15,003 nucleotides of DNA from a virus (lineage: Duplodnaviria; Heunggongvirae; Uroviricota; Caudoviricetes): IMG/VR virus record IMGVR_UViG_2734482594_000016; one strand, given 5' to 3'. How positions within the stretch are numbered: the first letter of the stretch is position 1; every line of letters starts with the position of its first letter. Below, piece by piece: positions 11,401 to 15,003 of this stretch. The translations under genes and the position numbers were made by a program. Below the pieces are notes generated by a model. That model was not told the origin of the DNA. It was given only the letters and a program-made list of their open reading frames with translations, and did not search any database.

Positions 11401-11869
11401 CAGCGCCAGCGCATCCAGTACGGATTTGGGGACGAAAACCACATCGTCGTTTGATTACGGCACTAAATCCACGAATAACACTGGTGCGCATACCCATAGT
11501 TTAAGTGGCAGCACGAATGCAGCTGGTAATCACAGCCATAGAGATGGCCGTCGATTTAACCCCAGTGTTTTTAAAGATACTTATCAATATGGTTATACAA
11601 GCTCAGGTCAAAATACCTGGGGTGTACAAGGCTCAGTAGGTATGTCTACGGGGTGGTTAGCTAATACCAGTACAGATGGTAATCATAGCCACTCACTGTC
11701 CGGCACAGCAGCATCTGCAGGTGCACACGCGCATACTGTCGGTATTGGTGCTCATACGCACTCCGTTGCGATTGGTTCACATGGACACACCATCACCGTT
11801 AACGCTGCTGGTAACGCGGAAAACACCGTCAAAAACATCGCATTTAACTATATTGTGAGGCTTGCATAA
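8471..11869 (+). CDS. stf: Side tail fibre protein Stf (about 1132 aa from ATG 8471; the track uses a GTG at 8465)
   Basis: N-terminus [36 protein letters not shown]... and C-terminus ...[49 protein letters not shown] match the lambda stf product from memory. Contains a long Ala/Ser/Thr-rich shaft and His-x-His repeats near the tip. The overall architecture resembles the Rac-type long StfR, but that is unverified. Confidence 0.9.
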
Positions 11870-12444
11870 TGGCATTCAGAATGAGTGAACAACCACGGAC
11901 CATAAAAATTTATAATCTGCTGGCCGGAACTAATGAATTTATTGGTGAAGGTGACGCATACATTCCGCCTCATACAGGTCTGCCAGCAAACAGTACCGAT
12001 ATTGCACCGCCAGATATTCCGGCTGGCTTCGTGGCTGTTTTCAACAGTGATGATGCATCGTGGCATCTTGTTGAAGACCATCGGGGTAAAACAGTTTATG
12101 ACGTGGCATCAGGGGACGCGTTATTTATTTCTGAACTCGGTCCGTTACCGGAAAATGTTACCTGGTTATCGCCGGAAGGGGAATATCAGAAGTGGAACGG
12201 CACAGCCTGGGTGAAAGATGCAGAAGCAGAAAAACTATTCCGGATCCGGGAGGCGGAAGAAACAAAAAACAGCCTGATGCAGGTAGCCAGTGAGCATATT
12301 GCGCCGCTTCAGGATGCGGTAGATCTTGAGATCGCAACGGAGGAAGAGAAATCGTTACTGGCCGCATGGAAGACATATCGGGTGTTGTTGAATCGTGTTG
12401 ATACATCACTATCTCCAGATATCGAGTGGCCAAGTCAACCATAA
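11869..12444 (+). CDS. tfa: Tail fibre assembly protein Tfa (191 aa)
   Basis: Start overlaps the stf stop (TAATG). Translation [61 protein letters not shown]... matches lambda Tfa from memory. Confidence 0.9.
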
Positions 12445-12450
12445 ATCAAT

Positions 12451-12471
12451 ATCCCCTGCAATGCAGGGGAT
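12451..12471. terminator. Perfect hairpin between the convergent genes tfa and sopB, probably a bidirectional terminator
   Basis: ATCCCCTGC-AAT-GCAGGGGAT: 9-bp stem with 3-nt loop, in the 32-bp gap between the tfa stop (12444) and the sopB stop (12477); flanked by A/T-rich sequence on both sides. Confidence 0.5.
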
Positions 12472-12476
12472 AATTC

Positions 12477-13442
12477 TTAATTATCAGTAGATTGTTCCTC
12501 TAGTAACAACTCAATTTTGCTTAGTATTTCTTTAGATATTTTGCGGCTATCAATTTTTATAGTTACAAAATTCCCTTTATATCTAGCCGTGATCCCTTCC
12601 CCATATTTTTTCTCGTCTTTTGTTTTTTCCTCGTCGCCAACCAGAACAGAGTCAGATAATATTTGTATAATCCGTGAAGCTTCTAAATCCTCGCCGTTTT
12701 TTTTTATTGTCAGAAGATGATGAGCAGCATTGCTCATGGCAGCCATGTTTTTTTTGTAAATCTTAAACAAAGAATCTCCAGCACGAGCTGACAGTTCTCC
12801 TGGATGATTGAAGATAGCTAATATATCTTTTGGTAGACCAGCTGTATTAATACAGCGAGTGATAATATTTCTATCTATATTTTCAGCCTCGGCCAATGCT
12901 TTAACGTTACCATCAAAGTCATTTAGCTTGCGTAAGTATCTCTTTCCTCTTTCGTATGCACTAATAGGCCTATAATCGTTACCAATTTGGGATAACCAAT
13001 GCATCTGTTCATCGTCGAGATCACCAATTAAGACGCGATAGTCACATCCTGTTAATATCGCTGCTTTTCTTCTACGTGAGCCGTCAGCGACTTCAACGAT
13101 TCCAGATACTTTTCTGGCGAAAGCTGGATTTTGTTGTCCAGACGTTAGAAAAGATGGGATTAAATCGGCTAGAGAGGATTCATTTAATAAATCTTGATCG
13201 CGTTCATTACCTAGCCATACCATTGTTGCCATTTCAACTTTATCTGCGGGAATTGTCTCTAACTTAAAGTTAACATTACGTCCGCATACTGGCAAAGTTA
13301 TGCTGTTACCGGTTAATGAACTCAGTTGACGTTTTAAATCACCAACCATAGGTGATACGGGCTGATGTTCAGGGGCATGATGATTATTACTCATAATGCG
13401 ATTAATATCTGGAGCATTTTTTAGAAGAGAGCGCTGTTTCAT
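12477..13442 (-). CDS. sopB: SopB/ParB-family centromere-binding partition protein (321 aa)
   Basis: Translation has ITLPVCGRNVNFKLE, WLGNERDQDLL, GSRRRKAA (ParB box), DYRVLIGDLDDEQM, YRPISAYERG and HPGELSARAGD, closely paralleling F-plasmid SopB as I remember it. Start ATG overlaps the sopA stop (ATGA-type coupling). Confidence 0.9.
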   Translation of the reverse strand: MKQRSLLKNAPDINRIMSNNHHAPEHQPVSPMVGDLKRQLSSLTGNSITLPVCGRNVNFKLETIPADKVEMATMVWLGNERDQDLLNESSLADLIPSFLTSGQQNPAFARKVSGIVEVADGSRRRKAAILTGCDYRVLIGDLDDEQMHWLSQIGNDYRPISAYERGKRYLRKLNDFDGNVKALAEAENIDRNIITRCINTAGLPKDILAIFNHPGELSARAGDSLFKIYKKNMAAMSNAAHHLLTIKKNGEDLEASRIIQILSDSVLVGDEEKTKDEKKYGEGITARYKGNFVTIKIDSRKISKEILSKIELLLEEQSTDN

Positions 13443-14608
13443 TATTCGTTCTCCCAGCGAGGTTTTATTAGATCATCAAAAATTTCTCTGCAAACAGGGT
13501 CCCATATAGAAACAGCATTTCTCCATGCATTCAATGTTGAACGTTGGTTTGCTGCTTGTTCAAATACTGTTCTCATTTTTATCTGGCCTTTACCTACTTC
13601 ATCGGTAACGCGTACAACCTGACGTAATACCATTGATCCCCATGTATTTCTTATTTGTTCTTCCATCCATCGTGATTGATTCCCTGTAGTGAGACTATAT
13701 TTAGTCAGAAGTAAGCGAACGGTTGGCTCAAATCCACCTAGGTCAACGCTTTCCAATAGATCGAGAAGCATTGTGAAAAACTGTAGAACAGAAGCGTAAT
13801 CAAATAATTCTGCAGGTGTAGCAACAACAATAACGTCAGCGGCACAAACAACGTTAATGGTTCCTGTACCGAGGTTCGGAGCACTATCTATAACGATAAC
13901 ATCGTAGTTATCCCAAACTGATTCAATAGCTGCGCGCAGCATAAGGTGTGGAGGATGAGGCAATTTACCCTGAGCATGATATTGCATGAGATCTGTTTCT
14001 ATACGATGTAAAGCTAGGCAGCTAGGGATAATGTCTAGCCCAGGCCAACATGTTGGCTTTATAGCATATTCAGCGTTATCGCGTTCTCCTAAGTAAAATG
14101 GCAGTAAAGTATCCTCGGCATGGATATGTAAATCAGGAACATAACCGTGATACATAGAGGCTGTACCTTGAGGATCGTTACCTTCAACCAAAAGAACACG
14201 ATGACCTTGTAATGCTAACCATTGAGCTTGATGTACCGCAGACGATGTTTTATAAACGCCGCCTTTGTGTGACATAACGGCAAGAACAACAGGGTTTTTA
14301 TCTTGTGGTCGTTGGTTTGGGTTGCCAAAAACTGCTCGCATACTGTTGATTTGATCTATGGTATAACCAGCACGACGTTCAATTCTTCCTCTCATTTCAA
14401 AGTCAGGTGCAGGTAAACGCCCGCTCTTCTCAGCATCTCTAATTGCTTGAGGAGTTACACCAATTAAATCTGCTACTTCAGTAATACCCCATCGGCGGGT
14501 GATACGCCGAGCTTCAGGACTATCATCACCGAATTGAGCGATAGCAATTGCTTGGGTCATTTCTTGACCTCTCGTAACACAATCTTGCAATAGCTTTTTC
14601 AAAGACAT
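13442..14608 (-). CDS. sopA: SopA/ParA-family partition ATPase, type Ia with N-terminal HTH extension (388 aa)
   Basis: Deviant Walker A SHKGGVYKTS; N-terminal region AIAIAQFGDDSPEARRITRRWGITEVADLIGVTPQAIRDAEKSGRLP; long stretches match F SopA from memory (VLLVEGNDPQGTASMYHGYVPDLHIHAEDTLLPFYLGE..., KPTCWPGLDIIPSCLALHRIE). GGAG lies 9 nt upstream of the ATG. Confidence 0.9.
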   Translation of the reverse strand: MSLKKLLQDCVTRGQEMTQAIAIAQFGDDSPEARRITRRWGITEVADLIGVTPQAIRDAEKSGRLPAPDFEMRGRIERRAGYTIDQINSMRAVFGNPNQRPQDKNPVVLAVMSHKGGVYKTSSAVHQAQWLALQGHRVLLVEGNDPQGTASMYHGYVPDLHIHAEDTLLPFYLGERDNAEYAIKPTCWPGLDIIPSCLALHRIETDLMQYHAQGKLPHPPHLMLRAAIESVWDNYDVIVIDSAPNLGTGTINVVCAADVIVVATPAELFDYASVLQFFTMLLDLLESVDLGGFEPTVRLLLTKYSLTTGNQSRWMEEQIRNTWGSMVLRQVVRVTDEVGKGQIKMRTVFEQAANQRSTLNAWRNAVSIWDPVCREIFDDLIKPRWENE

Positions 14609-14629
14609 ACTGTCATCTCCAGCTTGTAA

Positions 14630-14707
14630 CTTTGCTTAATAATTAAATCTTTGCTTATTTCTAGCAAATTTGCATGAAAAAGGCAAAGCAAAAAGAAAAA
14701 CGCAAAG
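14630..14707 (-). promoter_or_regulatory. Putative sopAB promoter/operator with repeated CTTTGC / GCAAAG hexamers
   Basis: CTTTGC at 14630-14635 and 14649-14654; GCAAAG at 14683-14688 and 14702-14707; palindrome GCAAATTTGC at 14664-14673. A possible sigma70 promoter on the - strand is -35 TTGCTA (plus 14662-14667) with a TAATTA-like -10 about 17 bp downstream. CTTTGC repeats are the SopA autorepressor sites in F as I recall. Confidence 0.45.
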
Positions 14708-14896
14708 GAGAATTTTTAAGCTAAATCATCTTTTGTTCCCCTCCCGAAATGCATAAAACGAACAACAACATAATCATAAGTAATTGATATTTATTATATT
14801 TTTTGAAGAAAGGAAATCATGTAAAACTAGGGAAACATGATAAGAATCATCAATGAGATACGTTTTCTCTATTAGTTCTCCCAACCTTACCAATAC

Positions 14897-14964
14897 AAGA
14901 ACACAAATAAAGAACACAAAAACTAAGTAATGATGCAAACATAATAAAGAACACAAATAAAGAA
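14897..14964. repeat. Two exact 18-bp direct repeats AAGAACACAAATAAAGAA (14897-14914, 14947-14964) plus a partial third copy at 14911-14921
   Basis: Seen directly in an AT-rich, apparently non-coding stretch upstream of the sopA operator. Confidence 0.7.
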
Positions 14965-15003
14965 TTAAAGCTAAATGTTAAATAAAGCAGTACACAAAAT
15001 GAG

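Follow-up and report, generated by a model that had tools for sequence, protein, structure and literature searches.

A sopBA partition operon adjoining lambda-type tail genes as the probable maintenance module of an N15-like linear phage-plasmid

Why should the segregation machinery of a low-copy plasmid lie immediately behind the tail-fibre genes of a lambda-like phage? The question is raised by a stretch of 15,003 nucleotides (the window) from IMG/VR virus record IMGVR_UViG_2734482594_000016, at the right-hand end of which tfa, the final gene of a lambda-like virion module, faces the genes sopB and sopA of a type Ia partition system. The original prediction, made from the letters of the window, had left the choice between an extrachromosomal phage-plasmid of the N15 or P1 kind and an integrated prophage carrying a captured plasmid locus. 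We consider it highly probable that the cassette serves the partition of an N15-like telomere phage, whose prophage is a low-copy linear plasmid of about 47 kb with covalently closed hairpin ends.

The two partition proteins are of known families. The sopA gene (13442-14608, minus strand) encodes a type Ia ParA ATPase of 388 aa that matches the NCBIfam SopA equivalog NF010259 with 734 bits (cut-off 725) as well as Pfam AAA_31/CbiA; it has a deviant Walker A motif (KGGVYKTS), the AAA_31 domain at residues 108-280, and an N-terminal extension with a MerR-type helix-turn-helix (HTH) at residues 42-68. Directly downstream in the same operon, the sopA stop overlapping the sopB start at 13442, sopB (12477-13442, minus strand) encodes a ParB-type centromere-binding protein of 321 aa that is recognised by NCBIfam NF010252 (408 bits, cut-off 274), TIGR00180 and Pfam SoPB_HTH, and carries a GSRRRK arginine patch together with the SopB HTH domain. 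Both proteins are closest to their homologues in N15, phiKO2 and PY54. SopA is 93% identical to N15 gp28, 92.5% to its phiKO2 counterpart, 71.6% to PY54 SpyA and 99.5% to the homologue in PhiR46_1, while the corresponding values for SopB are 74% (N15 gp27), 73% (phiKO2), 55% (PY54 SpyB) and 84% (PhiR46_1 ParB). Residues 152-316 of SopB, which cover the part for DNA binding and dimerisation, are 44% identical to F SopB (PDB 3MKY), and identity to P1 is 26% for ParA and about 26% for ParB. The ParAB-parS systems of P1 and P7 resemble the present one in that a type Ia ParA/ParB pair keeps a prophage as a plasmid, but they serve a circular replicon, have an adjacent parS, and at this low identity form a separate lineage. 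A P1-like element was rejected at about 26% identity, and only the N15-like half of the earlier phage-plasmid proposal stands, supported by linear relatives of about 47 kb.

These relatives are plasmids of Escherichia. The region from 11869 to 15003 is found at 100% identity in E. coli plasmid CP088810.1 (pB16EC0268-3) and at 99.8% in NZ_CP145143.1 (pCAVP367-48), an E. coli plasmid deposited as linear with 47,626 bp. Other plasmids from E. coli, E. albertii and E. fergusonii, mostly of 46-48 kb, match it at 93-99.8%; the relatives whose sop region is 99.8-100% identical encode a protelomerase. The gene order in NZ_CP145143.1 begins with the protelomerase, small genes, a RepA of 1331 aa, a CB-like repressor, Cro, Q and a RelE toxin-antitoxin pair, and continues with a methylase, lysis genes, Nu1 to J, lom, stf, a macro-domain gene, tfa, sopB and sopA, where the record ends. 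By local BLAST, the block from Nu1 to J in this plasmid matches lambda positions 13-18461 at 96.3% identity, and the remainder, including sop, is about 70-77% identical to N15; the RepA gene of the relatives has about 72% nucleotide identity to N15 gene 37. Judged from these alignments, the virion genes of the element appear to be those of lambda and not N15's own. SopA, SopB and the protelomerase are hallmark genes of telomere phages (PMC12042878), and from Escherichia and Shigella, phage-plasmids of the N15 kind are reported that join structural genes of lambda type to a plasmid region with repA, sopAB and telN (bioRxiv 10.1101/2025.09.12.675607).

A rightward look through near-identical relatives, by which the phage-plasmid proposal was to be checked, turned up a telomere, with a protelomerase and an N15-type RepA on the same replicon. 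The window ends at 15003, 63 bp short of the centre of a hairpin-telomere palindrome seen in CP088810.1, and relatives that are identical up to this point run on into the palindrome core CCCCATTATACGCG|CGTATAATGGGG, which contains the N15 telO core. In CP088810.1, perfect palindromes occur between two sopA copies and between two copies of the telomere resolvase, and since their centres are 46,967 bp apart, we read this 81-kb 'circular' record as a read-through of a hairpin-ended molecule of about 47 kb. Two IMG/VR contigs with the identical tfa-hairpin-sopB junction stop 21 and 32 nt beyond the palindrome centre; contig ends at such a palindrome are the expected behaviour of an assembler at a physical fold-back. 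Giant perfect palindromes centred on the telO core occur likewise at the start of NZ_CP025707.1 (1-36209) and in several public plasmid records of 61-91 kb deposited as 'circular'; they are long-read read-throughs of the hairpin telomeres of a linear plasmid of about 47 kb and not real structures. Other assemblies with an identical SopB show either a fold-back of sopA onto sopA or, in two of them, an uncut telRL with telN on its far side, an arrangement that represents the virion or a circular form.

Could the cassette instead be cargo, that is, a plasmid sopAB locus acquired downstream of tfa by a lambdoid prophage integrated in the chromosome? The J-lom-stf-tfa module is indeed common to many chromosomal lambdoid prophages at 95-96% identity, and an identical SopB is found on one contig of 3.8 Mb. 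However, the chromosomal prophages match the window from 2213 to 12431/12432 and none extends into sop; their matches stop, together with the homology to lambda, within tfa, 13 nt ahead of its stop codon. We surveyed 5,426 complete E. coli genomes and found the sop cassette in 15 of them, with 21 of its 23 places on plasmid replicons. The remaining two places belong to a single sopA-to-sopA fold-back in which many genes are frameshifted and with which chromosome record NZ_CP025707.1 begins; this copy is a misassembly. The 3.8-Mb contig (CAXHUB010000001.1, from GCA_964019885.1) holds the element in its last 45 kb or so, with telRL-telN intact, and resembles a join through shared lambda genes; it is either such a misjoin or a rare integration. 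The identical SopB and the uncut telRL-telN lie at 3767069-3788034 of that contig, and its telRL arms differ by one base. We did not find a bona fide integrated copy of the cassette among the complete E. coli genomes or the assemblies with identical SopB. As the window is, moreover, collinear with its relatives to within 63 bp of the telomere palindrome, we regard captured cargo in an integrated prophage as highly improbable.

The adjacency of tfa and sopB could also have been produced by the assembly. Runs of N occupy positions 1930-2212 (283 nt), 4301-4559 (259 nt) and 7408-7595 (188 nt), with no others in the window, which is therefore a scaffold, and one that includes a misplaced inverted contig (see below). 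Yet the junction, as had been claimed, is no scaffold join: positions 7596-15003 form a piece of about 7.4 kb free of N that holds both the tfa/sopB junction and the whole sop cassette. The same junction recurs in at least 11 independent plasmid records, in the two IMG/VR contigs and in further assemblies, and an identical 51-nt junction, or the entire 3.1-kb region, is present in many independent assemblies of E. coli, E. albertii and E. fergusonii. An exact search with the 51-nt sequence gave no match in the collections genome_contigs and metagenome_contigs, and the two IMG/VR contigs that contain it are close relatives of the window, not its source. The N-free junction and its recurrence refute the reading as an assembly artefact, for which we see practically no chance.

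A partition system requires a site as well as two proteins, and it is here that the earlier description of a 'complete' sopB-sopA operon was overstated: the genes and the operator are present, the centromere is not in the window. In N15, the SopB sites IR1-IR4 have the form GTGCGACC-NN-GGTCGCAC (PMC7205306). We found no such site in the window, even when allowing up to three mismatches, and no F-type centromere site in it beyond chance. Within the 47.6 kb of NZ_CP145143.1, on the other hand, five N15-type sites occur at 7871, 10314, 15524, 18534 and 18754, where 0.17 would be expected by chance; they are placed in repA, after Q, after the gene-51 homologue and twice around a DUF4406 gene, and are syntenic with IR1-4 of N15 (33479, 35930, 41124 and 45561). 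The same set is carried by CP088810.1. The relative has one palindrome more than N15, the last position being doubled with 220 bp between the two copies. With no site in the window and five elsewhere in the relatives, the Sop system becomes complete only when the whole element is considered, and the window cassette consists of trans-acting genes and operator only.

The operator-like repeats of the original prediction are confirmed. The 15-kb window has six exact CTTTGC sites, and four of them fall within 14630-14707, upstream of sopA, a clustering for which the position-corrected chance estimate (four sites in 78 bp) is about 7e-5. Read on the minus strand, direct hexamers 19 bp apart (CTTTGC at 14707-14702, CTTTGC at 14688-14683 and aTTTGC at 14669-14664) each have an inverted partner 34 bp downstream (GCAAAt at 14673-14668, GCAAAG at 14654-14649 and GCAAAG at 14635-14630), so that four exact and two one-mismatch hexamers make up three overlapping inverted pairs, each with a 28-bp spacer. 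Motif and spacing agree with those described for F, pLVPK, N15 and phiKO2, in whose par promoters binding by three ParA dimers was proposed (PMC8465637), and the hexamers are among the few blocks conserved when the sop upstream region is aligned with that of N15. From this arrangement, the segment is predicted to be an autoregulatory SopA operator that overlaps the sop promoter. A candidate promoter on the minus strand (TTGCCT at 14686-14681, a spacing of 17 nt, TAGAAA at 14663-14658) is proposed from its position within the operator; a scan with the sigma-70 consensus did not call it and returned one weak site only, at 14825-14798. A ribosome-binding site, GGAG, is located at 14620-14617 on the minus strand.

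Among known systems, the sop locus of N15 is one of the closest. The order and orientation are alike in the two elements: terminator hairpin, sopB, sopA, a spacer of 460-490 bp, and telL or telRL. N15 itself runs from the tail fibre through a umuD-like gene and a terminator stem-loop (annotated at 22085-22113) to sopB, sopA, 487 bp of spacer, telRL and telN. The SopA hexamer operator is shared, and the same 18-bp SopB palindrome is found at syntenic positions in the relatives of the window. There are also differences. DNA identity is just about 73%; SopB of N15 has 342 aa against 321 here, its C-terminal tail being absent from the window protein; N15 has four SopB sites as opposed to the five of the window's relatives; the umuD-like gene 26 stands upstream of sop in N15 where lambda tfa stands here; and N15 has its own virion module, whereas that of the window's relatives is lambda's (96% nucleotide identity).

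Further parallels are found among hybrid elements. PhiR46_1 (PV340565.1, from E. coli ECOR13) is also a lambda-virion/N15-backbone hybrid with sopB-sopA by the telomere and annotated tel sites at both ends, but the C-terminal half of its SopB differs and three other genes take the place of tfa. The hybrid architecture is shared by pCAVP367-48, which differs by its extra macro-domain gene between stf and tfa, and by CP088810.1, which differs in having been deposited as an 81-kb circle, a hairpin read-through artefact. The SopABC system of F belongs to the same type Ia family and has the same operon organisation and a CTTTGC operator with 13-bp intervals and 28-bp inverted spacing (PMC8465637). 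It differs in having one perfect hexamer pair instead of the three near-perfect pairs here, and tandem 43-bp sopC repeats (TGGGACC-NN-GGTCCCA) directly downstream of sopB, an array that is missing from the window.

SopB itself is a mosaic. Its residues 1 to about 160 are identical to those of PhiR46_1, and the C-terminal third, after the HTH (from about residue 225), is strongly divergent. At the DNA level, homology of sopB to the PhiR46_1 lineage begins just at 12763, leaving 12477-12763 as a divergent 3' third; the SopA proteins are 99.5% identical. This pattern suggests a recombination breakpoint within sopB that may have exchanged the dimerisation domain. The exact 321-aa SopB is indexed in 1,474 blocks of a public assembly collection, human-gut metagenome scaffolds among them, and we conclude from this number that the lineage is common.

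On the other side of the operon, tfa (11869-12444, plus strand) encodes a tail-fibre assembly protein of 191 aa (Pfam Caudo_TAP, E-value 4.8e-44; PHROG 105) and has 92-93% nucleotide identity to lambda orf-194. An Rfam match, to family IS009 (RF02111) with 199 bits (gathering score 117), covers 12212-12410 on the plus strand, wholly inside the tfa coding sequence, and probably reflects prophage tfa-derived sequence modelled by the family rather than a separate RNA gene. It was the sole match in an Rfam scan of 11800-15003, with nothing in the sop region. The tfa gene and the sopB-sopA operon (12477-14608, minus strand) converge on a gap of 32 bp (12445-12476) that holds a hairpin, just as the original prediction had it. 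The hairpin, at 12450-12472, consists of a stem of 10 bp closed by a loop of 3 nt, and either strand of it scores as terminator-like. Its folding energy is -17.2 kcal/mol (z-scores of -4.4 and -4.1), and none of 200 shuffled sequences folds equally well. It is likely to serve as an intrinsic terminator in both directions, ending the late (tail) transcript and the sop transcript that run towards each other. A search for other short palindromes near sop returned none but this hairpin. The G+C content drops across the tfa/sop joint, from 52.8% in lom-stf and 47.6% in tfa to 37.8% in sopB, 42.2% in sopA and 28.6% upstream of sopA. In E. albertii NZ_CP117561.1 and NZ_CP126913.1, the interval between stf and sopB is annotated with a gene for a 'secretion protein EspS', and in pCAVP367-48 it holds the macro-domain gene; the interval seems to be a variable cargo slot.

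At the opposite end, the AT-rich spacer upstream of the operator (14708-15003, 28.6% G+C) adjoins the left telomere and holds repeats of the AAGAACA type. Two copies of AAGAACACAAATAAAGAA are found in it, at 14897-14919 and 14947-14969, with a third just past the window end, and similar AACACAA/AAGAACA motifs flank telRL of N15. An open reading frame of 60 aa at 14774-14956 has no family match. Phased AAGAACA-type repeats present both here and in N15 led us to consider whether the stretch of about 360 bp between operator and telomere might be a shared regulatory platform that couples binding or resolution of the telomere by TelN to expression of the partition genes, and whether, in addition, whole virion modules (lambda's here, N15's elsewhere) might be exchanged on a linear-plasmid backbone, with the tfa-hairpin-sopB joint as a favoured site of recombination. 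Taken jointly, these two suggestions from sequence patterns strike us as quite unlikely to hold.

The left half of the window requires separate treatment. The virion genes visible in the window are I (in part), J, lom, stf and tfa, interrupted by the N gaps and by a deletion in lom. The open reading frames at 88-2328 (minus strand), 2715-4592, 4562-6859 and 6926-7819 cross or abut the gaps and are artefacts; a 'split' J, a Lom-J 'fusion' and the 746-aa reverse frame at 88-2328 were accordingly rejected as genes, being products of the N runs and overlapping contig ends. The first contig piece (1-1929) repeats, in inverted orientation, the 3' portion of a J gene and the start of lom (compared with 5117-7906); its positions 1-311 are 100% complementary to 7596-7906, and those at 485-932 just 77% complementary to 6030-6477. 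These two levels of complementarity indicate that two different receptor-binding alleles of J are present, the second probably from another lambdoid prophage through a contig misplaced by the scaffolder. An invertible host-range segment, as an explanation of the inverted J fragment (1-2328) and of apparent tandem duplications, was rejected because the junctions are N runs and contig-end overlaps. The true start of stf is probably the ATG at 8471 rather than the GTG at 8465.

In lom, 83 bp are deleted at 8418/8419 relative to CP088810.1, pCAVP367-48 and the IMG/VR contigs, removing the last 22 codons or so and the stop; this could be a true deletion or an assembly error. One might thus see in the window a plasmid that has ceased to form phage and retains, besides the maintenance genes of N15 type, a portion of a lambda tail module, given that no relative shares the deletion, that the scaffold is fragmented in J and lom, and that only part of the element is visible. 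But stf, tfa, sopB and sopA remain intact, with 98.7-100% identity to their counterparts in full-length relatives, repeats common to other prophages account for the scaffold gaps, and lom is dispensable in lambda. We consider a defective remnant very unlikely; such a state would bear on phage competence and would leave the role of sopAB unchanged.

Several observations do weigh against an N15-like linear plasmid. The window itself contains no telN, repA, telomere or centromere site, and we therefore infer its own replicon state from collinearity with the relatives; by this analogy, the source genome would carry the element as a linear plasmid. Given the gapped scaffold and the damaged lom, the window copy could be defective. 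Finally, two assemblies place the identical SopB beside an uncut telRL-telN, one of them at the end of the 3.8-Mb contig.

For the N15-like element that we favour, a mode of action may be proposed in which binding by SopA and SopB, autoregulation and termination are modelled on the biology of N15 and F. Transcription of the sopA-sopB operon would run leftwards, its promoter lying about 460 bp inward of the left telomere, and the shared hairpin would end both this transcript and the converging late tail-fibre transcript. SopB would load on the 18-bp palindromes of N15 type, which would lie outside the window, scattered over the half of the element with replication, immunity and late genes. SopA-ATP on the nucleoid would then position the SopB-DNA complexes such that each daughter cell inherits the linear plasmid, and SopA, aided by SopB, would act on the three overlapping inverted pairs of hexamers to repress the promoter of its own operon.

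A sop module beside a telomere is already known and is ordinary for N15-like telomere phages, and the identical sequence is annotated in public records. What the cassette adds is a marker for this scaffold, which it assigns to a linear phage-plasmid rather than to a chromosomal prophage. Annotation of 'sopAB' alone overlooks the dispersed centromere sites of these elements, and many deposited 'circular' plasmids of 60-90 kb, together with one chromosome start, are fold-back misassemblies of hairpin-ended molecules of about 47 kb.

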